Assembly: GCA_964467175.1 (NCBI GenBank)
Contig: CAYXNY010000045.1
Coordinates: forward strand, 1-60,047
From: Candidatus Micrarchaeota archaeon
GTDB taxonomy: Archaea; Micrarchaeota; Micrarchaeia; Anstonellales; J096
Direction: 5' to 3'
DNA length: 60,047 nucleotides
This document shows positions 9,498-60,047 of this stretch, piece by piece; position 1 is the first letter of the stretch; every line of letters starts with the position of its first letter. Position numbers and translations under genes: made by a program. The notes beneath the pieces were generated by a model. That model searched no databases and had not been told where the DNA came from. It saw only the letters and a list, made by a program, of their open reading frames with translations.

Positions 9498-9527
9498 AAG
9501 AAGAGCGAGCGTACAAGTTTAGATATA
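9498..9527 (-). other. 3' half of 23S rRNA processing stem
   Basis: gaagaagagcgagcgtacaagtttagatat is the inverted complement of 12705..12736 (helices gaagagcgagc/gctcgctcttc and aagttta.gatat/atatc.taaactt) with an unpaired centre. This is the usual archaeal pre-rRNA processing helix. Confidence 0.6.
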
Positions 9528-9530
9528 TTG

Positions 9531-12704
<3,174 letters not shown>

Positions 12705-12736
12705 ATATCCTTAAACTTCTGATATGCTCGCTCTTC
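12705..12736 (-). other. 5' half of 23S rRNA processing stem
   Basis: Inverted complement of 9498..9527 (see that feature). Confidence 0.6.
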
Positions 12737-20806: not shown

Positions 20807-20949
20807 GGGCCTGTAGCTCAGCTTGGATAGAGCGACAGCCTTCTAATAAAGAAGGCCAGAGGAAAAACCTCGGCGGTTGCTGGAGGTAAGATAGGAACCG
20901 CCGGAGGTTCCTGCGCTGAAGGTCGTGGGTTCAAATCCCACCAGGCCCG
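20807..20949 (+). tRNA. tRNA-Arg(TCT) with ~68-nt intron at/next to anticodon loop
   Basis: Hand-folded. Acceptor gggcctg/caggccc, D arm gctc-agcttggata-gagc, anticodon stem acagc/gctga (27:43 A-A), loop cttcta(a) with TCT at 20842-20844, and T arm gtggg-ttcaaat-cccac. There are 75 nt between the anticodon stem strands (7 loop plus 68 intron). No encoded CCA. Confidence 0.85.
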
Positions 20950-42960: not shown

Positions 42961-43063
42961 TCCCGTCGGGCGGACTTGAACCACCAACCTGCCGGTTCCC
43001 ACAGGTGCATTTACGCTGTGCTGAAATCTACAGCCGGCCGCTCTACCGTTGAGCTACGACGGG
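42961..43063 (-). tRNA. tRNA-Tyr(GTA) with 31-nt anticodon-loop intron
   Basis: Minus strand: cccgtcg-ta-gctc-aacggta-gagc-g-gccgg-ctgtag[31 nt]a-ccggc-aggtt-ggtgg-ttcaagt-ccgcc-cgacggg-a. The C1:G72 pair is the archaeal/eukaryal Tyr identity element. Confidence 0.85.
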
Positions 43064-49080: not shown

Positions 49081-51729
49081 GTGGAAATTTATACTATCGA
49101 GAAAGAAAAAGTTTATGCTGCGCTGAAAACTGCTCCGGACGGCCTGAGCCAGAGCGAGGCAGAAAACAGGCTGTTGAAATACGGACTGAACAAAATAGCC
49201 GAAGAAAAAAAAATCCCGCTTTTTTTGTTGTTTCTGGAGCAGTTCAAATCCCCGCTTATACTCCTGTTACTTTTTGCGATTGCAATATCGGCTTTTGTTG
49301 GGGAGGTTGTTGACGCAGTTATCATAGGGGTTATTATTGTATATGCGTCGGTGTTGGGGTTTGTGCAGGAATACAGGGCAGAGAAGGCGATGGAGGAGCT
49401 GAAAAAACTCTCGGCGCCGAAAGCAAAGGTGATTAGGGATGGAAGTATTGTTGTTGTTGATGCTGAAAAAATAGTTCCCGGAGATGTTCTGTTCCTTGAA
49501 GAAGGCGACAGGATCGTTGCTGACGCAAGGGTCGCGGAGGGATTTGAGCTCAGAATCGATGAAGCGTCCCTCACAGGCGAATCGACGCCAGTCCAAAAAA
49601 ATTCTGATGCCCTAAAAGGAAAGGTCCCGGTTGCCGAAAGAACCAATATTGTTTTTTCAGGCACGACCGTAGTGGCGGGGCACGGAAAGGCCGTTGTGTA
49701 CGCAACAGGCATGGAAACAGAATTCGGAAAGGTTGCGAGGATGCTTCAGGAGGAGGAAAGGCCAAAAACACCCCTTGAGATAAAGATGCATGAAATCGGA
49801 AACTTACTCGGCATAGTGGTGCTAGCAATTGTTTCCATAGTTGCGGGGCTTGAGTTTCTTACAAGAGGCGGGGACCCCCTAACGGTTTTTATATGGGCGG
49901 TTGCCCTCGCGGTTGCAGCGGTTCCTGTTACGCTTCCGGCGGTAGTGACAACCTCCCTCGCTCTTGGGATGTACAAAATGTCGAAAAAAAACGCAATAGT
50001 CAGAAAACTTGACGCCGTTGAAGCGCTGGGCTCGGTCAATGTAATCTGCACAGACAAGACAGGAACCATTACTAAAAATGAAATGACCGTGAAGGAAATA
50101 TTCGTCCTTTCTGGGGAGTATTTTTTAGAAGGCGTAGGATACAAGCCAGAGGGAAAAATTCTGCAAAACAACAGAGTTGTCGACTCGTCCTCAGAAAGCG
50201 CAAGACCGCTGTACCTCGCTCTTAAAATAGGTGCACTGTGCAACAACGCGTTTTTGATTAAAGAAAAAAACGAATGGAAGATACACGGCGACCCGACGGA
50301 AGGCGCGCTTCTCGTTTCAGCGGCCAAAGCCGGCTTTTTTAAGGAAGAGCTTGAGAAGAGCGAAGAAAGAATATCCGAGATTCCTTTTTCTTCAGAAAGA
50401 AAGATGATGAGCACGATAAACAAAAATGGAAAAAAATATTTCCTCTACTCAAAAGGCTCTCCGGAAACTGTTCTGTCCAAATGCAGATATGTTCTTGTTG
50501 ATGGAAAGAAAAAGCCCTTAACAAAAAAAATCAAGGAAGAGATTTTGAAGCAGAACAAGAAAATGGCTTCCAGCGCCCTGCGCGTTCTTGCGATGGCGTA
50601 CAGGGAAGTAGGCAAAAAACAGAAATACGATGAAAAGGATGAGAAAGACCTTGTTTTTGTCGGCATGCAGGGCATGATAGACCCTCCGAGGCCTGAGGTT
50701 AAGGACGCGATAGCCGTTTGCAAAGAAGCAGGGATAAAAGTGATCATGGTTACCGGAGACCAGAAAGGGACGGCCGAGGCTGTGGCCCGGCAGATAGGTT
50801 TGGAAGGGAAGGTGTATGACGGCAAAGAGCTTGACGAAATTAAAATAGAGGATATTGTTGATGAAGCCGCGGTATTTGCGAGGGTTTCTCCTGAGCAAAA
50901 ACTTCGCATTGTCAAGGCCTTGAAGGCAAAAGGATATGTCGTCGCAGTGACCGGAGACGGAATAAACGATGCGCCCGCTCTTAAAACTGCGGATGTTGGA
51001 GTGGCCATGGGAATAACCGGCACCGATGTGACAAAAGAGGCCGGGGCGATCGTTCTCGCGGACGACAATTTTGCAACAATAGTGAGCGCTGTGGAAGAGG
51101 GGAGAGGAATATACGAGAATATAAGAAAATTCCTATTTTTTCTTCTCTCATGCAATGTAGCCGAGGTTGCCTTGGCGTTTCTCGCTGTTGTTTTCGGGCT
51201 TCCCCTTCCGCTTCTTGCGATCCACCTCCTCTACATAAACCTTGCGACAGACGGACTTCCGGCAATGGCCCTTGGCGTTGAGCCCTCTGAGAAGGATATA
51301 ATGAAAAGAAAGCCTAGGATGAAGAGCGAGAGCATTTTCCACAGGATGAAGGTTCCTCTACTGTTGTTCTCCCTCTACCTGACGCTTTCGCTTTTCGCAA
51401 TTTTTTCGTTTTCCCTTCCTTATGGGCTGGAAAATGCAAGAACCCTTGTGCTTGTTGCGATGATTTTTGCCGAGCTCGCGAACGCATTCAACGCAAAATC
51501 GATCGAAAAGTCCTTGTTCAAAATAAACATATTTAATAATAAATGGCTCATCCTTGCAATAATATGGGAGATCTTGCTAATCTTGTTCTTCGTATCAACA
51601 GAATTCTCGGCCTTCCTAAAAATAGTGCCTCTATCAGCAGCTGATTTGGTTCTGCCTGTTTTCGTCGGGGTTTGTGCGATAGCATTCATGGAAATAACAA
51701 AATTTTTCATTTTTCGTAGCTCCTCATGA
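49081..51729 (+). CDS. P-type (P2, Ca2+/cation) transporting ATPase
   Basis: 882 aa. TGES, phosphorylation site CTDKTGTITKN, MVTGDQ and VTGDGINDAPALK motifs, with about 10 TM. GTG start as listed. Confidence 0.9.
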   Translation: MEIYTIEKEKVYAALKTAPDGLSQSEAENRLLKYGLNKIAEEKKIPLFLLFLEQFKSPLILLLLFAIAISAFVGEVVDAVIIGVIIVYASVLGFVQEYRAEKAMEELKKLSAPKAKVIRDGSIVVVDAEKIVPGDVLFLEEGDRIVADARVAEGFELRIDEASLTGESTPVQKNSDALKGKVPVAERTNIVFSGTTVVAGHGKAVVYATGMETEFGKVARMLQEEERPKTPLEIKMHEIGNLLGIVVLAIVSIVAGLEFLTRGGDPLTVFIWAVALAVAAVPVTLPAVVTTSLALGMYKMSKKNAIVRKLDAVEALGSVNVICTDKTGTITKNEMTVKEIFVLSGEYFLEGVGYKPEGKILQNNRVVDSSSESARPLYLALKIGALCNNAFLIKEKNEWKIHGDPTEGALLVSAAKAGFFKEELEKSEERISEIPFSSERKMMSTINKNGKKYFLYSKGSPETVLSKCRYVLVDGKKKPLTKKIKEEILKQNKKMASSALRVLAMAYREVGKKQKYDEKDEKDLVFVGMQGMIDPPRPEVKDAIAVCKEAGIKVIMVTGDQKGTAEAVARQIGLEGKVYDGKELDEIKIEDIVDEAAVFARVSPEQKLRIVKALKAKGYVVAVTGDGINDAPALKTADVGVAMGITGTDVTKEAGAIVLADDNFATIVSAVEEGRGIYENIRKFLFFLLSCNVAEVALAFLAVVFGLPLPLLAIHLLYINLATDGLPAMALGVEPSEKDIMKRKPRMKSESIFHRMKVPLLLFSLYLTLSLFAIFSFSLPYGLENARTLVLVAMIFAELANAFNAKSIEKSLFKINIFNNKWLILAIIWEILLILFFVSTEFSAFLKIVPLSAADLVLPVFVGVCAIAFMEITKFFIFRSSS

Positions 51730-52177
51730 ATAGAATGGATAGCGGAAGAATTGAAAAAATAAATACTGCGGCAGGGCATGTGTGTTTGTATGCCTCCTTT
51801 GGATTGAGAAGGCTCTGCTGTCTCAGCTCTTCCTGTTGCACGCTTTTTTCGCACAATTCTTTTACGTTTGAAATTGGCCATCCCTGGGGAATGTTGTAGT
51901 GCTCTTCTACGTTGCTGCAAATATTCTTATCCAGCATTGTCCTTGCAACCTCTATTATGCAGGTGTTGTACTCAAGGTCCTGCATCGTTATGCTTATATC
52001 CGGATCTTTAATTATCTCTCTACATGTGCTTACCGCTTGTTTTTTGTCTCCTATGAGAGCATAATAAACTGCCGTTTTTTTGTAGCATTCAGGCCTCCCG
52101 CTACAATTTCCTATTGCTATGCAGCCCGCGAGCAAAAGAAGGGCCGCCAAAATAAGCGCTATTGCTGTTGCACGCAT
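51707..52177 (-). CDS. Cys-rich putative lipoprotein with C-terminal TM
   Basis: Trimmed to MRATAIALILAALLLLAGC (lipobox-like). 156 aa with 9-10 Cys. Divergent from the paralog operon. Confidence 0.45.
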   Translation of the reverse strand: MRATAIALILAALLLLAGCIAIGNCSGRPECYKKTAVYYALIGDKKQAVSTCREIIKDPDISITMQDLEYNTCIIEVARTMLDKNICSNVEEHYNIPQGWPISNVKELCEKSVQQEELRQQSLLNPKEAYKHTCPAAVFIFSILPLSILFMRSYEK

Positions 52178-52200: not shown

Positions 52201-52210
52201 TTTTAAATAT
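52201..52210 (+). promoter_or_regulatory. TATA-like box upstream of the membrane-protein operon
   Basis: ttttaaatat is centred ~25 nt upstream of the ATG at 52231, in a 53-nt divergent intergenic region. The spacing would give a leaderless or very short-leader mRNA. Confidence 0.35.
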
Positions 52211-52230: not shown

Positions 52231-53403
52231 ATGCCGGCAATACCAACCCTTAACGACTATCTTTCTGTTGCCATGCCGTTTATAGCCGTAGCTTTTGGCA
52301 TCCATGTTTTATACGCTGCTTTGCATTACATGTGGGGGAATTTCATGAACAGCCCTCAGGCATATGCGCGTGGAAAGGAGGAGGTTCTCTCCCTCCTTAG
52401 GACAATAGGCATATTCGTCTCCGTTATTGTCTTATACAATCTTATTATTCTTGGTTTGGGCATAGATTTTATTTCGCTGGCAAAACTTTCTGTAAAAAGT
52501 TTTTTCTGGATGCTTTTGGACAGATACTTGGAAATAATGGGATTTGATTTTGCCCTTGGCAGTATTTCACAAACTGGCATCTTTGTGTTCATCCAAGCCG
52601 AGTACGGGTCGATAGAAATAGGCGGCTCTCCTGTTGTTGGGCTTTCAAACACCCTCACTGTTCTTCACAAGACTCTTGAGCCCCTTCAATATGGTCTGAC
52701 GCTTGCGGCGGGAAGGTACGCCCTCCTTGACTTCGCGCCGGCAGGCATGCTCTATCTCATGCCGCTTGGTTTTTTCCTTAGAGCCTTCCCGTTCACAAGA
52801 AAGACGGGCTCTAGCATAGTCGCTTTAGCAATAACGGTTTTTTTTGTCTATCCGCTTTCTGTTCTTTTTACAGATTATCTGGTCACCGCATATGAAAGTC
52901 AAAAAATGATTTCGCCAACTCTTCCAAAAAACACCCTCATAACTACAGAGACCGATGAAGAAGTTTTCTCAGATTTTGTTGGATATTTAGGCAAAAATGT
53001 ATCCCAAGGGCAGAATGACTACATCCCGCCCGGCGAAACAACCTCTGTAAGCGGCAGTAAAGGACTGTGGGATAGATTCACTCAATGGCTGGGAAATGTT
53101 TTTAATATTGCTGCGTGGGTCAGCAACCTTAGCGAGGGCTTTGCAAATATACTAAGGCTTGCCGGCTCTACTTTAAAGATGCTAGTCACGTTCGGCACGC
53201 CTCTGACCAGCCCAGTAGGATGGGTCCTTCCAACCCTCTTGATTTCTTTAAAGTGGGTTTCCATAATTGCAGAGCAGATTGCAATAATATTTACAATATT
53301 TGTGCTTGAGATTACGATAAGCATCACCATGTACAGGAATATCGCGATGCTCATAGGAGGAGAGCTCAGGATATTCGGCATTACAAAGGTGACAGGAGGA
53401 TGA
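52231..53403 (+). CDS. Polytopic membrane protein, paralog 1 of 6 (LRxFPPTRxxG family, unassigned)
   Basis: 390 aa with multiple TM segments. Signature LRAFPFTRKTG at 52777-52809. C-terminal tail GELRIFGITKVTGG. ATGA overlap with paralog 2. Confidence 0.75.
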   Translation: MPAIPTLNDYLSVAMPFIAVAFGIHVLYAALHYMWGNFMNSPQAYARGKEEVLSLLRTIGIFVSVIVLYNLIILGLGIDFISLAKLSVKSFFWMLLDRYLEIMGFDFALGSISQTGIFVFIQAEYGSIEIGGSPVVGLSNTLTVLHKTLEPLQYGLTLAAGRYALLDFAPAGMLYLMPLGFFLRAFPFTRKTGSSIVALAITVFFVYPLSVLFTDYLVTAYESQKMISPTLPKNTLITTETDEEVFSDFVGYLGKNVSQGQNDYIPPGETTSVSGSKGLWDRFTQWLGNVFNIAAWVSNLSEGFANILRLAGSTLKMLVTFGTPLTSPVGWVLPTLLISLKWVSIIAEQIAIIFTIFVLEITISITMYRNIAMLIGGELRIFGITKVTGG

Positions 53404-54278
53404 ACCCATTAATCTTCGTTGCAATCGGCATCATGATTTCTGTTATCTCCTTAGCGTTTATGTTCGCGAGCTTTGCAAAAAAGCCAGAATGGGAGGCATG
53501 GGCAAAGGTTGAGCTCTACGAGCTTGCTTGGGGAATCATCCTTCTTATAGTTATATATGGAATATACAATACAGTAAGCTTTATCGCGGATTCCTATATA
53601 GGCACAAACATAATAAACTACTCTGAGAACAGGCTGAACGATGTGGTGAAGGACCGCCTTCTCCCGGCCTTCATTCAACTGACCTACTTGGACCATAATG
53701 TTATTTTTTGGAGCCAGTTCAAGCATAGGTTCGGTCCCTCTGCCTGGGGAATAACCTTTAGGCTTTATCCAGGCCTTGAAATATACTCCCAGCCGGTAAG
53801 GATTTTAGAGTTTGGATACATGGCCGCGTTTGCAAGCCTTTCTGTCCAAATTATGCTTTTCCACATCCTTAATGTTATTACAGATGTTTTGATCGCTGCA
53901 GGCCTTCTCTTAAGGTTTTTCCCACCAACAAGGACAAGTGGTAACCTTCTCATAGCCCTTGGTTTTTCCTTTAAAGTAATATTCCCTCTTATGTACATTC
54001 TATCTTTCCAGGCGCTTGATGAAATATACAAAATCCATGGATGGAGCATGTCTGGTGTTTGGCAAACAGCCTATATCCCGCAGTTGATAGGCACAACGAT
54101 GCCGATGGTTATTACGCTTACTCCGGGTTTGTTCCATTCTCTTTTGAACAACTTCGGCCATCTTTCTGTTGAGATTCTCGTAATTCCCTCAGCGGCTATG
54201 ACCGTTGCTATCTCAGCAACGACCGGCCTGCAAAAGGCGCTTGAGTGGAAAACAATAGAGCTGGGTGGTTGGAGATGA
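53400..54278 (+). CDS. Polytopic membrane protein, paralog 2 of 6
   Basis: 292 aa. N-terminal TM plus KVELYEL. Signature LRFFPPTRTSG at 53910-53942. ATGA overlaps on both sides. Confidence 0.75.
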   Translation: MNPLIFVAIGIMISVISLAFMFASFAKKPEWEAWAKVELYELAWGIILLIVIYGIYNTVSFIADSYIGTNIINYSENRLNDVVKDRLLPAFIQLTYLDHNVIFWSQFKHRFGPSAWGITFRLYPGLEIYSQPVRILEFGYMAAFASLSVQIMLFHILNVITDVLIAAGLLLRFFPPTRTSGNLLIALGFSFKVIFPLMYILSFQALDEIYKIHGWSMSGVWQTAYIPQLIGTTMPMVITLTPGLFHSLLNNFGHLSVEILVIPSAAMTVAISATTGLQKALEWKTIELGGWR

Positions 54279-55531
54279 TTTCTGTTCCTCTTGAATTTGT
54301 ACCTTTTGCGATAATCGGCGCAGCATTCGGCATCTCCATTTTCCTTTCTTCCATTGCATACATGGTAGGCGTTGCTCTAAGCGATGAAAGGATAAAGGGA
54401 TGGGCAAGGTTTGAGGTGTACGAAATATTCTACTCTGCGGTTCTTGGTGTTTTGATCGCATCCTCATGGGCGGTTATGATAGGGCTGAGCGATGAGATTG
54501 CAAAATCTCTAGACCCGCGGGGTTATCTTTTTGCCTTGGGTGGGATGGATAATGAGCCGATCTTCCTCACCATGGCTCAGACCTACATGCGCGAGATATA
54601 CGGCGAGATTGCGTATCTGTATACCGAGATTTCGAAGGTTACTTCTGTAACCATGTTCCTTGATAGCATAAGCTATACTGTGATTGCAGCCCAGCTTGAA
54701 GATTTTGGCGGAAGCATAGGCTTTAGCCTCTGCCCTCTTTTTTTTGGCCCCTTCAACTTCCTCATGAGCAACATTACAGAAATGCTGATAAGGGTTGGCC
54801 TGATTACTGTATTCCAGGCAGCCATTCTTGCTTTCATAAAGTCCGTGATGCCGGCATTTATCGGCGTTGGTTTTGCGCTCAGAATACTCGGTCCGACCAG
54901 AAAGCTCGGAGGCCTCATGATGGCCATGGGGCTTATGCTCTACTTTGTCTTTCCAATGTTCTATGTTTTTGGAAGCGGAATATACCACTCCCTTGAGCCT
55001 GCTGAGAAGTTTGCCGGCATGAGGATTGCGAAGTTCAACTCCTACTTCGGAACGATTAGCATATTTGGAAATAGTTTGGAGTACGATAAGGAGTTTGATG
55101 AGAAATTTGGGGTTTATGAGGAATACATAAAAAGCGGAAAACTGGAGGAGATGAATACGCAAGAGCTTGAGGCTGGCATAGGCCAGAATCTTCAAGAAAT
55201 AAACAGAGAATTTTCCGGCTTTGACATTTCAATCCCCGGAGCTATGAGGGTGATTCTTGACTACCTTCTCTCTGTCCCAGAACTGCTTGGAAACCTTGTC
55301 TGCATTTCAAGGGTCAGCGCGCAGGCATGGAACTATGGCCTCCTTTCTCCTTTAGTCTATGATAACAAAGTGTTTATCTCAGAGATAATGTTTGAGATGC
55401 TTGCGAACCTCCTGTTTTTCACAACAGTTTTTTCTTTCATGGCGCTCATGGCAGTGATTGCCGGAACAAAAGGCCTTTCCCCGCTGCTCGGAGGGGATGT
55501 TGAGATCGCTGGGCTTACGCACTTTATATGA
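54275..55531 (+). CDS. Polytopic membrane protein, paralog 3 of 6
   Basis: Start set to the ATG at 54275 (ATGA overlap), 418 aa. RFEVYEI after TM1. Signature LRILGPTRKLG at 54878-54910. Tail GGDVEIAGLTHFI. Confidence 0.75.
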   Translation: MISVPLEFVPFAIIGAAFGISIFLSSIAYMVGVALSDERIKGWARFEVYEIFYSAVLGVLIASSWAVMIGLSDEIAKSLDPRGYLFALGGMDNEPIFLTMAQTYMREIYGEIAYLYTEISKVTSVTMFLDSISYTVIAAQLEDFGGSIGFSLCPLFFGPFNFLMSNITEMLIRVGLITVFQAAILAFIKSVMPAFIGVGFALRILGPTRKLGGLMMAMGLMLYFVFPMFYVFGSGIYHSLEPAEKFAGMRIAKFNSYFGTISIFGNSLEYDKEFDEKFGVYEEYIKSGKLEEMNTQELEAGIGQNLQEINREFSGFDISIPGAMRVILDYLLSVPELLGNLVCISRVSAQAWNYGLLSPLVYDNKVFISEIMFEMLANLLFFTTVFSFMALMAVIAGTKGLSPLLGGDVEIAGLTHFI

Positions 55532-55541
55532 GGTAGAAAAC

Positions 55542-56705
55542 ATGGATAAGAGAATGATTTTTGTGCTTTTTGCCTTTGTTCTCCTCATTCCACCAGCTCA
55601 TTCCCAGCAGATTTCTTCTAATGGTTCTGTTCCCGACATTTCGCAACTCGAACAGCTCACTTCTGAAGAAACGATTCAAAAAATGGTAGATGCCACCACA
55701 CGACTCGGAAAATGTGAAGAACCGAAAGACATTTTGGATGTGTTCGGCCTTTCCTACCTCGCTATGGTTGTTGTAATATTTTTCTACACCGCTGCCTATC
55801 TAGGTGGGAAGCTTTTCAACTACCCCGTTACAGACGCGCTTCTAAGGATAAAGATAGACGAGGTTGCAACAACAGTTTTCATAATCTTTGCTGTAAGCTT
55901 TCTTTACGCTTTTGTAAACTCCTCTCCACAGGGATACTACTATCTTAATGAAGCAATCGAGTACAATCAGAAGATTCTTAAGCACGTCCTTGGCAACATA
56001 GGTATTTTCACTATTTTTTCAACTATCATATACCTTCTCTACGGTCTTACAGTATACATTCCTATTGTTCCGGGCATGCCCCTCATAAAGTTTACGATAA
56101 GCATCGGCCCTGCGCTCAAGCCCATTGTAGATATGATATTCCAAAGCTCCAACATGCTTGCCGTTATTGTTATAGAATGGACGACGATGCACGCTATTCT
56201 ATGCATGATAAAAACATGGTGGCTCAGCTTTATTCTTCCGCTCGGGGTTTTGTTCAGAAGCCTGTCAATAACAAAGGATGCTGGAAATACATTGATAGCC
56301 TTGGCCATAGGGATGTATTTTCTCTACCCTATTCTTATGACCATGAACTATGATATATATGAAATGCAGATAGGAAAGGCGGCAACATCGGGCATTACAA
56401 ACTTTGACCTTTTCTTCGGGCAGGTCAAAAATTTTTTCTTTGGCGAGCCCCCGACACTAGTAATCGGCTTTGTCATAGCCGTTCTTGTTGCCATATACAC
56501 AAAGGGCGCGTTTGCAATTGCCGCCGCCCTAGCTTATCTTCTTTGGCTCCTTCAAAACACCCTCCTGGATACAGTATTCCTTATCTTTATCATAAGCATG
56601 TTTCTTCCTGCCCTGAATGTATTCATAACGCTTACATTCGTCATGGAGCTTGGAAAGCTTTTGGGAACGGATATAAATGTATCTGCGCTTACGAAAATAA
56701 TATGA
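55542..56705 (+). CDS. Polytopic membrane protein, paralog 4 of 6 (with extra signal-peptide-like N-terminus)
   Basis: Start set to MDKRMIFVLFAFVLLIPPAHS, with GAGGT 8 nt upstream, 387 aa. RIKIDEV after the family TM1. Degenerate signature FRSLSITKDAG at 56253-56285. Tail GTDINVSALTKII. Confidence 0.7.
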   Translation: MDKRMIFVLFAFVLLIPPAHSQQISSNGSVPDISQLEQLTSEETIQKMVDATTRLGKCEEPKDILDVFGLSYLAMVVVIFFYTAAYLGGKLFNYPVTDALLRIKIDEVATTVFIIFAVSFLYAFVNSSPQGYYYLNEAIEYNQKILKHVLGNIGIFTIFSTIIYLLYGLTVYIPIVPGMPLIKFTISIGPALKPIVDMIFQSSNMLAVIVIEWTTMHAILCMIKTWWLSFILPLGVLFRSLSITKDAGNTLIALAIGMYFLYPILMTMNYDIYEMQIGKAATSGITNFDLFFGQVKNFFFGEPPTLVIGFVIAVLVAIYTKGAFAIAAALAYLLWLLQNTLLDTVFLIFIISMFLPALNVFITLTFVMELGKLLGTDINVSALTKII

Positions 56706-56714
56706 GGTGCGAGA

Positions 56715-57812
56715 ATGATTATGCTTGCTGTTGGCCTTCCTGTTCTTCCGCCGCCTGAACCAGCCGTGCTCACCGCCTGCAATCCTCCGAACATTGATTT
56801 TCTCGGCCTCTCCTTCCTCGCCCTTTTTGTTTCCTCATTGTATATCCTATTTTTCTATTTCTGGGGAAAGCTTACGAGCAATCCAAATACAGATGTTTGG
56901 GTGAAAGGAGAAATTTATGAAATAGGCGCAACTGCTTTCATAGTTCTTTTGTTCCTTCCGCTCTTTCTAAATGTTGCCTGCGCTTTTAAACTAGGCGATT
57001 ACAACATATTCAAAACCGCATCCGTTTACCTAGAGTCTCTAAAAGCAAGCATAACTATAGTAATGGATGCTTTGGCCGGAGGGTATGCCGTAGTGGACAT
57101 GATTGCTTCTATATCAATAAAGGCTCATCCTTTTGGTTTAGGTCTTTCAGCGAATGATGTTGGCGCCGGGATTGTTGCCCTTTGGAAGCCCGTCATCCTT
57201 CAGATAACCAATGCGTTAACCCTCGGCTATATATTCGCATCTGCTCAAACAGTAATTCTCGAGTATTTTACATACGGCATGATAACAAAAATCCTTCCGC
57301 TTGGCGTTCTCCTGAGAAGCTTCACTCCGACAAGAAGGGTCGGGGGGATGCTTCTTGGCCTTTCTCTCGGCCTTCTCTTCCTCTATCCGCTTGTTCTCAC
57401 CCTCAACTACTTCCTTGTTAAGGATTATCTTGTTGTTTCCTGGAATCAAAAATCAAATAAATGGGAACTAGATGAGGGCTTTAAAACCGTTCTTGCGGAT
57501 ATTGGAAAATCAACAATTCCCCTTGACTCGAACGATAGTTCTTGGAGAAACTTCTTCCGCATCGCAGGAGAAGTTGTTTCCATCTTGGGTTCAATAGCGT
57601 TTATATTTACAAGCGGGGTTTGGTTTGTTTTGCTGGCCTGGGGCATTATTATTATTGTTTGGGGCGCGGTTATCGCTGGCGCCTACCTTGGTGTTGTTGC
57701 AGGCATAATACTGCCCGCGATAAATACAGTTATATTAATACAAGGAGTGAGATACTTTACGTACCTGTTTGGAGAAGAGCTTGACATTACAACTTTGACG
57801 AGGATGGTATGA
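56715..57812 (+). CDS. Polytopic membrane protein, paralog 5 of 6
   Basis: 365 aa with GAGGTG upstream. GLSFLAL...GKLTSNPNTDVWVKGEIYEI aligns with paralog 4. Signature LRSFTPTRRVG at 57312-57344. Tail GEELDITTLTRMV. Confidence 0.75.
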   Translation: MIMLAVGLPVLPPPEPAVLTACNPPNIDFLGLSFLALFVSSLYILFFYFWGKLTSNPNTDVWVKGEIYEIGATAFIVLLFLPLFLNVACAFKLGDYNIFKTASVYLESLKASITIVMDALAGGYAVVDMIASISIKAHPFGLGLSANDVGAGIVALWKPVILQITNALTLGYIFASAQTVILEYFTYGMITKILPLGVLLRSFTPTRRVGGMLLGLSLGLLFLYPLVLTLNYFLVKDYLVVSWNQKSNKWELDEGFKTVLADIGKSTIPLDSNDSSWRNFFRIAGEVVSILGSIAFIFTSGVWFVLLAWGIIIIVWGAVIAGAYLGVVAGIILPAINTVILIQGVRYFTYLFGEELDITTLTRMV

Positions 57813-58774
57813 TGGAATTTTGGGAAGGATGGGAAGCGGTTTGTTTGCTCATTTCCGTTATCAGCGTTATAGGAACAGCCATTCTGATTATGGCTGCAAA
57901 GCTTTTCAGCTTAAAGGAGCTTGAGCAGGGTGCAAAGGCAGAGCTCACCTTTGCCATATCCACCGTGTTTATTGTGCTCTTCCTTGTTCTGGCAGTTAAT
58001 TTTGCAGATTCCCTCGCAACAGAGTTTGCTAAGGAAAGTTCAAAAATAATATTCGGCAGAGAAATGCACGCAAACAATTTCTGGGAGGTGTCCAAGCTGT
58101 ACATGAATAACATCTATGAGTGCTATCTAATTTCTGAAAAGATTCTTGTTTCGATAGATGCAGGTGTATCCACAATAGCCAGGCTCAATTTTTCAGCGCT
58201 AATGTTTGATCCTATCGGAGCTTACACTTTTGGAATGATGCACGAGTTTATTGCGAACATTCTTGGCCTGTTATACTATTTCAAATGGGGGTACAAGCTT
58301 ATGATAAAAACCGTTGATTTCTTTTTTTACATAGGCTTTCCCATACTTTTTCCCACAGGTGTCGCTCTCCGCGCATTCCCGCCAACGCGCGGCACCGGCG
58401 CCTACATCATGGCGTTTTCAATAGGCATATACTTTATTTTTCCTATCGCATACCTTCTTGCAATCGGCGTTATGCAGTCACCCTTTTTCTGCCCAACTTT
58501 CTTCCTTAAGTTTGTTCCACTCCTTCTGGACCCGTGCGAAACAGAAGATATAAATATATTTGGCCTAGCTTTCTCTTGGGTTATGGGTAATTTAGAATTC
58601 ATAAATGTATTTTTTAAAGAGTTCATCCCGGGCCTTTTGAGAGAGGTTTGCCTCAATCTGTGCATCTTTCCCTTTGTTGCCCTAATGATAACCTTTTCCT
58701 TTGTAAATTCCGGCTCAAGCCTTTTCGGCGCAAACATTCCAGAGGTGGGAAGGGGGCTCGTGAAGCTGATATAA
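57809..58774 (+). CDS. Polytopic membrane protein, paralog 6 of 6
   Basis: 321 aa. ATGA overlap with paralog 5. Signature LRAFPPTRGTG at 58367-58399. Tail GANIPEVGRGLVKLI. Confidence 0.75.
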   Translation: MMEFWEGWEAVCLLISVISVIGTAILIMAAKLFSLKELEQGAKAELTFAISTVFIVLFLVLAVNFADSLATEFAKESSKIIFGREMHANNFWEVSKLYMNNIYECYLISEKILVSIDAGVSTIARLNFSALMFDPIGAYTFGMMHEFIANILGLLYYFKWGYKLMIKTVDFFFYIGFPILFPTGVALRAFPPTRGTGAYIMAFSIGIYFIFPIAYLLAIGVMQSPFFCPTFFLKFVPLLLDPCETEDINIFGLAFSWVMGNLEFINVFFKEFIPGLLREVCLNLCIFPFVALMITFSFVNSGSSLFGANIPEVGRGLVKLI

Positions 58775-58829
58775 AAATAATAAGGTTTTTAATTCCTTAT
58801 AAGCACAAAATTAATGTATGGAAAAATCC

Positions 58830-60047
58830 ATGAAGCTTTGCGTTCTACTCCTCCTTCTTTTCACCCAGCTTTCCTACTCTGCCGGTGAAAAATACACGTC
58901 TATAGTTGTTTCTAAGCAGGTGGATGAATCAAACGGCACAATTTTCCTGAACATCACAGTGCTTTACTTCAACACATCGAAGATAGAAATTCCTCAAGGG
59001 CCAGGCCAACCTCCGAAAATAGTGGAGCAGACAAACATAAGCTCTGTTGAGAACGCAACAGTGTACATTTCATTCTACAATACCTCCTACAGCGAGGAAG
59101 GAAAACCTGTACAAACCCTTGTTCCTCTTCCCTGCTCCCCCATTTTAACAAACAAAAGCTATGAAGAGGACGGCAAGGTTGTTTATTTTGGCGAATGCAC
59201 CATAGAAGGAGAGTTGTACTCAAAATACTTCAACAACACGTGCAGAGGGATTCATTTTTACTTTCCTGGAATTTCTCTCCCTACCGAGTCCATCCCACCA
59301 ACAGAAACAACCGTTGATGTTTGCACGGGAAAACCGACTATTTTTGAAGCGTTGAGAGGGATACTCGCGACCGCCATAAATCCAGAAGACCCGTTTTGCA
59401 TCTCCATGTTTATAATATTTGGCCTTCTTCTTGCCACGCTGTTTTTTACAGGAAGGTCTCCGCTTGCCCTTTTGGACATGGTAACGCCCATGCTTCCCAA
59501 GCCGAGGAGGTTTGCTTATACAGCCGGGATGCATACCATTGGACACAAGAAGATGAAGGAAGATGCGGCCAAGGTAATATCCGCACTCGATAAACAAATA
59601 AAGGAAAAAGAAAAGGAAGTTAAAGAAGCCCTAGCTGATCTTCGTTCGCTGTACGATAAAGCAGAACCATGGAAAAAATTGCTCGCGCTTAAGGCTCTTG
59701 AGGAGGGCAATATACCATTGGCTGAAAGGCTTCTCAAAAGCAACAGCCCGTTCAGTATTGCCACTCTTCACTTTGAAAAAGACGATCCATATCTGGTAAA
59801 AGCCCGGGAATACCTTCTTATGAGAAAAATGTTGGATGCTTATGATGAGATGCAAAGGGTTTCGAAGAATAAATATGTTAATAAGGTTCTGAAATGGATG
59901 GGAAAACAGTATCTGCTCATGGAGATACCCGCGGCGCTTCAGGCAACGGCTATGGCATCTAGGTTTGTAAAAAGAGTTGTCAAGGCACCATTTGTTAGGT
60001 ACGGAGAGCTAAAACGCGCAAAAGCTGTTGAAAGGGCAGCGACACCG
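58830..60047 (+). CDS. Signal-peptide, N-glycosylation-sequon-rich surface protein with one TM and helical cytoplasmic domain (3' end beyond window)
   Basis: Not in the supplied ORF track because no stop is reached. I translated it by hand from the ATG at 58830 (MKLCVLLLLLFTQLSYSAGEKYTS...) and the frame stays open to 60047 (405+ codons). Seven N-x-S/T sequons and 5 Cys lie in the first ~170 aa, followed by the TM FCISMFIIFGLLLATLFF and a K/E-rich helical region. Confidence 0.65.
   Translation, partial: MKLCVLLLLLFTQLSYSAGEKYTSIVVSKQVDESNGTIFLNITVLYFNTSKIEIPQGPGQPPKIVEQTNISSVENATVYISFYNTSYSEEGKPVQTLVPLPCSPILTNKSYEEDGKVVYFGECTIEGELYSKYFNNTCRGIHFYFPGISLPTESIPPTETTVDVCTGKPTIFEALRGILATAINPEDPFCISMFIIFGLLLATLFFTGRSPLALLDMVTPMLPKPRRFAYTAGMHTIGHKKMKEDAAKVISALDKQIKEKEKEVKEALADLRSLYDKAEPWKKLLALKALEEGNIPLAERLLKSNSPFSIATLHFEKDDPYLVKAREYLLMRKMLDAYDEMQRVSKNKYVNKVLKWMGKQYLLMEIPAALQATAMASRFVKRVVKAPFVRYGELKRAKAVERAATP

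Follow-up and report, generated by a model that had tools for sequence, protein, structure and literature searches.

Six tandem genes in the window, by which we mean the whole 60,047-nucleotide (nt) stretch analyzed here (positions 1 to 60,047 of contig CAYXNY010000045.1, assembly GCA_964467175.1, from Candidatus Micrarchaeota archaeon), encode diverged copies of one membrane-protein family, and we lean toward a reading in which their products would be six different subunits of one pseudo-symmetric hetero-oligomer, probably six-membered. The organism belongs to the order Anstonellales, in the phylum Microcaldota (Micrarchaeota) of the kingdom Nanobdellati (DPANN). The genes, all on the forward strand, are P1 (52231..53403, 390 residues), P2 (53400..54278, 292 residues), P3 (54275..55531, 418 residues in the public gene call, with an alternative GTG start at 54245), P4 (55542..56705, 387 residues), P5 (56715..57812, 365 residues), and P6 (57809..58774, 321 residues). 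Stop and start codons overlap by 4 nt at the P1/P2, P2/P3, and P5/P6 junctions and the other two junctions are gaps of 9 to 10 nt, a layout that suggests coupled translation of the six reading frames.

The relationship among the six proteins was examined with position-specific hidden Markov models (HMMs) built from 26 other genomes, with the window and its nearest relative left out, and searched against the 162 open reading frames (ORFs) of the window. Each model recovered exactly these six ORFs, with E-values of 1e-57 to 1e-75 for the cognate protein (5e-60 for P1, 5e-60 for P2, 3.5e-57 for P3, 2e-59 for P4, 7e-68 for P5, and 5.5e-75 for P6) and 1e-7 to 1e-22 for the other five, and nothing else in the window matched at E<=10. 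By these profile comparisons the six are true paralogs. The same arrangement is found in the other Micrarchaeota genomes examined. When ORFs were scanned with the family HMM, exactly six tandem, co-oriented copies in the same order turned up at each locus long enough to hold them, in a set of 28 species-level genomes and their close relatives; apparent copy numbers of 7 and 5 proved to be genes split by a frameshift or truncated, and neither copy-number variation nor a fusion of two paralogs was seen among 232 family proteins. Across the 28 species-level genomes, the best inter-genome BLAST match came from the same position in 4,486 of 4,536 cases. Distances between positions (0.87-0.95) far exceed those within a position across the phylum (0.57-0.64), from which it follows that the duplications would be older than the sampled radiation and that the order has not changed since. 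Comparison with two relatives gave ratios of nonsynonymous to synonymous substitution (dN/dS) of 0.06 to 0.17 for all six genes, indicating purifying selection on each. Paralogs that are equally old, that have never been lost, duplicated, or moved, that sit in one tight operon, and that are all constrained are best understood as subunits each with a unique place in one assembly. We also considered an origin from two subfamilies of three (an A-B-A-B type of ancestry), which was rejected; distances differ little from one pair of positions to another and bootstrap values are low, the best grouping, positions 1 and 3, being recovered in 36 of 50 replicates.

A preliminary description of this DNA, made from the sequence alone, had proposed that the family is defined by a signature in the middle of each protein. 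We found 26-residue signatures exactly where it had placed them, at 52777..52854 in P1 (LRAFPFTRKTGSSIVALAITVFFVYP), 53910..53987 in P2 (LRFFPPTRTSGNLLIALGFSFKVIFP), 54878..54955 in P3 (LRILGPTRKLGGLMMAMGLMLYFVFP), 56253..56330 in P4 (FRSLSITKDAGNTLIALAIGMYFLYP), 57312..57389 in P5 (LRSFTPTRRVGGMLLGLSLGLLFLYP), and 58367..58444 in P6 (LRAFPPTRGTGAYIMAFSIGIYFIFP), all on the forward strand. They begin at residues 183, 171, 202, 238, 200, and 187 of P1 to P6, within the range of 171 to 238 given for a shared relative position. A minimal pattern, [LF]R.{4}T[RK]..G.{14}P, has six matches in the whole 60 kb translated in six frames, all of them in these genes, against an expectation of 0.02 matches in composition-preserving shuffles. 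The motif positions are homologous, since MAFFT and hmmalign both align them column for column and since they occupy the same structural place in models of P1 and P4. The paralogs are otherwise 15-25% identical to one another, and BLAST alignments among the window paralogs are often anchored on the signature; residues 176-212 of P1 and 180-216 of P6, for example, are 49% identical.

Conservation within the family is also highest at the signature. When 168 proteins (28 genomes by six positions) were aligned with hmmalign, 14 columns proved at least 70% conserved (residue numbers refer to P1), and nine of these lie between G180 and P208: G180 (93%), L183 (78%), R184 (97%), F186 (73%), T189 (82%), R190 (95%), G193 (99%), A198 (74%), and P208 (100%). 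The remaining five are Y33, K49 and E51 in the first loop, G137, and F168. The resulting family signature, G-x3-R-x4-[T]-R-x2-G-x14-P, is present in all six window proteins, and the characterization of a basic, proline-containing connection between two helices as the family-defining element stands. Each position carries its own flavor of the loop: RAfPf.R.TGSS at position 1 (p1), LRFfPPTRdAG at p2, LRtf.fTRrLGG at p3, R.FTPTRRiGG at p5, and LRaFPPTRGaGAY at p6. Covariation between the loop and the C-terminal tail is inseparable from paralog identity, as each position has its own loop and its own tail with little variation within the position.

AlphaFold2 models of P1 (predicted local distance difference test [pLDDT] 84.5, predicted template modelling score [pTM] 0.75) and P4 (pLDDT 82.1, pTM 0.73) share a common plan. 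A first transmembrane (TM) helix leads to a second that begins in the conserved K/E loop and extends into TM2; next come another long helix, a β-hairpin, two very long helices joined by the signature turn, a variable and poorly predicted region, one or two long hydrophobic helices, and a short terminal helix. In both models the signature turn, a loop of 4 to 8 residues, lies between two helices of 40 to 57 residues. In P1 the signature covers the end of TM3, the turn, and the first half of TM4, with the turn between helices 138-184 and 187-226; in P4 the turn comprises residues 241-244, between helices 189-240 and 245-301. In both central helices hydrophobicity is limited to the half adjoining the turn, which places the turn on one face of the membrane and the helix extensions, the hairpin, and the variable region on the other.

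Several features help to tell the two faces apart. In all 28 genomes the position-4 protein is extended N-terminally of TM1, and in 23 of them the extension resembles a signal peptide (e.g., MRRLLFILLAASLVFANG); P4 itself has a signal-peptide-like N-terminal segment and an acidic extension ahead of TM1. Extensions of this kind are also present in 14 of the 28 position-2 proteins and in some p1, p5, and p6 proteins, and they suggest that the N-terminus of TM1 lies outside. The signature loop contains two or three Lys or Arg residues and usually no Asp or Glu, the sole exception in the window being the P4 loop with one Asp. With one exception, in the P4 tail, the N-x-S/T sequons of the window proteins fall in the large loops or in the extracellular N-terminal extension of P4, and conserved cysteines occur in the large-loop regions of p1 and p6 orthologs. 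Signal-peptide-like N-termini, positive-inside charges, and large loops bearing sequons and cysteines together predict a cytoplasmic location for the signature loop. The indirect evidence is thus good that the signature forms a short cytoplasmic turn, with the bulk of the protein predicted to lie outside the cell. The proposal that the loop might be a re-entrant or lipid-facing element finds no support in the models, which show a tight turn on the predicted cytoplasmic side.

The C-terminal tail, which is probably cytoplasmic as judged from the modeled topology, is less uniform than the loop. A common ending of L-T-basic and two hydrophobic residues had been proposed for all six proteins. P3 to P6 do end in [LF]-[TV]-[KRH]-h-h after an acidic stretch, and P1 has the same pattern followed by three extra residues (GITKV-TGG); P2, which ends in IELGGWR, does not fit. 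The atypical tail of P2 is not representative of its position, whose orthologs in other genomes end in a different tail (...INAMTKFIVGKM). The most conserved tail is that of P6 (...NIPEIGRGLVKLI). Paralog 4 had been singled out as the most divergent member and perhaps a specialized or inactive subunit on the basis of its SITKDAG segment, and our results argue against both suggestions. All six positions are about equally distant from one another, P4 keeps every near-invariant residue (the arginine, threonine, basic residue, glycine, and proline), and its dN/dS values of 0.139 and 0.128 lie inside the range of the other five genes (0.056-0.168). Position-4 orthologs in most other genomes read TR instead of TK, suggesting that SITKDAG is a lineage-specific variant with TK and SI substitutions.

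The family appears to be undescribed and, as far as named sequences show, confined to Micrarchaeota. An exhaustive HMMER profile search of 1.84 billion cluster representatives returned 2,962 proteins at E<=1e-3, of which 2,200 were at E<=1e-10. Word-indexed searches, in which just the 8,000 candidates with the most shared words were scored, gave 15 matches with the six-paralog alignment and 11 with a 104-sequence alignment and are uninformative on family size. The named members are all annotated as hypothetical proteins and come from Micrarchaeota, Micrarchaeia, Anstonellales, or Bilamarchaeaceae, except for the label of one metagenome-assembled genome (MAG), and all 36 loci recovered from GTDB species representatives belong to Micrarchaeota. 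The exceptional MAG (locus L042; GCA_028713495.1, JAQTOF010000012.1) is labeled 'Candidatus ainarchaeum sp.' and contains position-5 and position-6 genes with downstream synteny of the Micrarchaeota type; either the label is wrong or the family extends into a neighboring DPANN lineage. The six proteins matched nothing in Pfam or NCBIfam at E<=1 or among the PHROGs and PADLOC models, among 104 diverse members scanned against Pfam there were only five chance matches, each to a single member, no PDB chain matched the family profile at E<=10, and no relatives were found among IMG/VR viral contigs. Hence Pfam, NCBIfam, PHROGs, PADLOC, and the PDB offered no described family of which the motif could be a generic feature, and literature searches returned no description of the six-paralog family. 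An IMG label of 'uncharacterized membrane protein YwzB' on a position-1-like protein has no Pfam support and was treated as spurious. Comparison of folds with Foldseek was similarly unproductive. Against the PDB, the P1 model matched nothing below E=1e-3, the best matches being the Tweety homologs TTYH2 and TTYH1 (E=0.015, probability 0.77, about 436 aligned columns, TM-score 0.20); its best match in BFVD was an ORFan (E=0.027), and the P4 model matched nothing better than E=0.64.

The simplest model for the assembly would be a ring with one copy of each subunit. Each subunit would have a core of five hydrophobic segments with the N-terminus outside. TM1 and TM2 would be linked by a short cytoplasmic loop with the conserved K49/E51 pair, and would be followed by an extracellular stalk made of helix extensions and the β-hairpin. 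TM3 and TM4 would form the long helical hairpin, with G180-x3-R184 ... T189-R190-x2-G193 ... P208 as its tight, purely basic cytoplasmic turn, succeeded by the variable extracellular region, which is rich in cysteines and glycosylation sequons in some positions, by one or three more TM segments, and by the short C-terminal tail. A small charged cytoplasmic face would be made up of the signature turns, K/E loops, and acidic-then-hydrophobic tails, and a large extracellular part of the helical stalks, hairpins, and variable loops.

Several points weigh against this picture. The case for assembly comes from comparative genomics; the restriction to Micrarchaeota was judged from about 50 named matches out of some 2,960; and the topology was read from simple hydropathy, charge counts, and signal-peptide-like N-termini. 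In the P4 model, the region after the variable loop has a pLDDT of only 66 to 78 and includes a continuous 70-residue helix that may be two or three merged TM segments, and because confidence is lower there, the tail is placed by parity only (one or three terminal TM segments). Furthermore, no ATPase, substrate-binding protein, or other partner gene is conserved beside the operon, and the gene context holds no hint of a substrate. It could be asked whether the genes instead encode homo-oligomeric channels or transporters working in parallel, six in all, with a separate substrate for each and with clustering for co-regulation. One fold with the same cytoplasmic motif in all six proteins means that each could in principle self-assemble. 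Nevertheless, we find this unlikely, as arrays diversified for substrates normally gain, lose, and rearrange members, whereas here 28 species-level genomes show no change in copy number, order, or orientation and have orthologous positions; the overlapping stop and start codons favor equimolar synthesis, and constraint is similar on all six. A different question is whether the signature has any ligand, gate, or partner function, or is conserved as a structurally demanding turn, with its helix-breaking proline pair, its threonine N-cap, two glycines on either side that let the helices pack closely, and arginines that anchor the hairpin to the inner surface of the membrane. This alternative, which is compatible with a hetero-oligomer, we regard as possible though doubtful. 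Only 4 to 8 residues separate two very long helices, the elements G-x3-R ... T-R-x2-G ... P are what a tight membrane-anchored helical hairpin needs, and the positive charges obey the positive-inside rule. A structural and electrostatic role, in which the loop turns the hairpin and anchors it in the membrane, would account for the conservation just as well as a gate or partner-binding loop. That R184, R190, G193, and P208 are 95-100% conserved, more than other turns of the same proteins, and that a conserved K/E pair in the adjacent cytoplasmic loop, combined with an acidic tail, hints at a charged surface by design, speak for something beyond a turn, but neither is decisive.

The remaining alternatives would tie the family to known membrane proteins. 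TTYH proteins have five TM helices with the N-terminus out and the C-terminus in, and extensions of these helices form an extracellular bundle implicated in lipid interaction. Were the six paralogs prokaryotic relatives or analogues of these proteins, the complex would take up host lipids, and Micrarchaeota are without complete lipid synthesis and share the lipids of their host (PMC8975820). TTYH1/2 are the top Foldseek matches for P1 and recur for P4 (E=0.74), and the inferred topology is the same. We nonetheless consider a TTYH relationship very unlikely. With TM-scores of 0.17 to 0.20, root-mean-square deviations above 20 Å, and no E-value below 1e-3, the resemblance is only at the level of generic long-helix bundles; Pfam Tweety (PF04906) matched neither the six proteins at E<=1 nor any of the 104 members, and TTYH proteins are not known to assemble from six paralogs. 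More improbable still, in our estimate, is a remote kinship with VirB6/TrbL, in which the six proteins would form the platform of an apparatus for type IV secretion or a DNA-transfer-like process. What suggests this is a weak Foldseek match of P1 to TrwI/VirB6 of R388 (PDB 7o3v, chains G and F; E=0.49, TM-scores 0.23 and 0.30), together with the presence downstream, in the clade of the window, of a giant membrane protein and of a secreted protein rich in cysteines whose SLT (VirB1-like) match stays below threshold. However, these two genes occur only in close relatives, a Walker A motif is absent from the giant protein, and no locus contains a VirB4-type ATPase, pilin, or coupling protein. Neither the six proteins (E<=1) nor the 104 members (E<=0.01) match Pfam TrbL/VirB6 (PF04610), there is no PDB sequence match at E<=10, and VirB6 is not among the top 50 Foldseek matches of the P4 model.

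What a six-subunit surface complex might do is a matter for speculation. Micrarchaeota depend on their hosts for metabolites as well as lipids (PMC8975820), and cryo-tomography of the envelope of Microcaldus variisymbioticus ARM-1 has revealed a docking platform whose components are stated to be unknown (PMC11329633). Given this host dependence and the unidentified components of contact structures seen by tomography, the most attractive guess, held at low confidence, is that the complex serves as a surface conduit, uptake device, or docking device for a host-dependent lifestyle. A more ambitious proposal, which we think improbable as it stands, is that it is a phylum-defining heterohexameric envelope machine, with a fold absent from solved structures, that receives host lipids or the contents of intercellular connections and is a candidate for the membrane part of the ARM-1 docking platform. 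One hexamer, at ~240 kDa, would not on its own be large enough to make up the 21-nm barrel.

A TATA-box-like element (TTTTAAATA, 52202..52210, forward strand), read from the sequence, ends 21 nt before the P1 ATG and is a candidate promoter for a leaderless or short-leader transcript of the six genes. In the clade of the window, the operon is preceded by a P-type ATPase gene and a small lipobox-like gene and followed by two lineage-specific genes. The small gene is transcribed divergently (51707-52177, reverse strand, 156 residues), has a lipobox-like N-terminus (...LLLLAGCIAIG) and no convincing Pfam match, and adjoins the six genes only in close relatives. The first downstream gene, which is lineage specific and outside the phylum-wide six-gene unit, starts at 58818 on the forward strand and runs off the end of the window (58818..60047). 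Its intact homologs (L002, 16584-21134, and L041, 10001-14551; split into two ORFs in contig L001) encode a 1,516-residue protein with a signal peptide, a Cys-rich ectodomain with eight N-x-S/T sequons and six cysteines in the first 200 residues, a TM segment at about residues 198-216, and a C-terminal zinc ribbon (CPTC...CPRC, of the form CPxC...CPxC). About 1,280 of its residues have no match in Pfam, PHROGs, or PADLOC and no Walker A motif, and a metagenome scan with this protein as query returned one locus only. The second downstream gene lies beyond the end of the window (L041, 14586-16853, forward strand) and encodes a secreted or lipoprotein-like protein of 755 residues containing 38 cysteines along with 11 sequons. 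Around AIAQQESGFD this protein matches the lytic transglycosylase SLT domain below threshold (E=7e-4; 19.6 bits, where the cut-off is 21.3); for a DPANN archaeon, a murein-type glycosidase fold would be unusual.

Both downstream genes were found in close, Anstonellales-like relatives only and are missing beside the six genes in all more distant genomes, indicating that the conserved unit is just the six genes and that it belongs to the core genome. In distant genomes the operon typically has housekeeping genes as its neighbors, namely AspRS and SurE upstream and a PIN_5 RNase, a Pab1020-type RNA ligase, CDP-archaeol synthase (CarS), and an SppA peptidase downstream. The string of six genes, PIN_5, RNA ligase, CarS, and SppA recurs in many distant Micrarchaeota (L007-L036 and L042), often with AspRS and SurE upstream, and this synteny is unusually stable for such divergent genomes. 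The window is part of an archaeal contig and, away from the operon, carries an archaeal large-subunit (LSU) rRNA and tRNAs that probably contain introns. The LSU rRNA match (9521-12707, reverse strand) spans 3,187 nt against a model of 2,987 positions, implying about 200 nt of insertions. No small-subunit or 5S rRNA scored above the Rfam threshold across the 60-kb window, and the rRNA genes therefore appear to be unlinked. Two Rfam tRNA matches of 143 nt (20807-20949, forward strand) and 103 nt (42961-43063, reverse strand), neither reported by ARAGORN, are probably intron-containing tRNA genes.

The operon stands out as important because it is in every locus examined, always as six genes in order and under purifying selection, with products that are predicted to be mostly extracellular and that have no curated or solved relative. 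It is a concrete, testable candidate for a lineage-specific envelope machine in ultrasmall, host-dependent archaea, and the hypothesis can be tested directly, as co-cultures, proteomes, and tomograms of Micrarchaeota already exist. Published data sets include an ARM-1 proteome of 698 proteins (PMC11329633) and a transcriptome and proteome of Ca. Micrarchaeum harzensis (PMC8975820). Regardless of function, the signature loop and the position-specific tails are diagnostic for annotating about 3,000 clusters of 'hypothetical' proteins and for recognizing Micrarchaeota contigs.

Comparison with known systems places the family apart from each of them. TTYH1-3 (PDB 7p5m, 7rtt, and 7p5j) provide the best, non-significant, fold matches for P1 and share the five-TM, N-out/C-in arrangement predicted here and the extracellular bundle of helix extensions; they are, however, eukaryotic, have no sequence similarity to the six paralogs, and lack the signature loop, and the six-paralog family is not a member of theirs. 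VirB6/TrbL proteins such as TrwI of R388 are likewise polytopic inner-membrane subunits with long helices that oligomerize into a platform, and tandem arrays of VirB6 paralogs are described in Rickettsiales (PMC7648143). The likeness does not extend to any Pfam, PDB-sequence, or significant fold match, nor to other type IV secretion genes at the six-gene loci. Mycobacterial Mce loci also have six tandem paralogous genes in one operon, and their products, MceA-F, form one heterohexameric, envelope-spanning assembly that imports host lipids. This is an analogy of organization only. Mce proteins are single-pass, have a β-barrel MCE domain, and need YrbE permeases and an ATPase, whereas the subunits described here are polytopic, have no MCE domain (PF02470) or sequence similarity by Pfam, and have no linked permease or ATPase. 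Finally, MCM2-7, the proteasomal Rpt1-6, and Sm/Lsm proteins form hetero-oligomeric rings with one copy each of ancient paralogs. These are soluble ATPases or RNA-binding proteins whose genes are usually dispersed, unlike the six-paralog family, whose members are membrane proteins encoded in one operon and without an enzymatic motif; what they have in common with it is that the number of paralogs is fixed, that all are of the same age, and that each has orthologs across its whole clade, none being dispensable.

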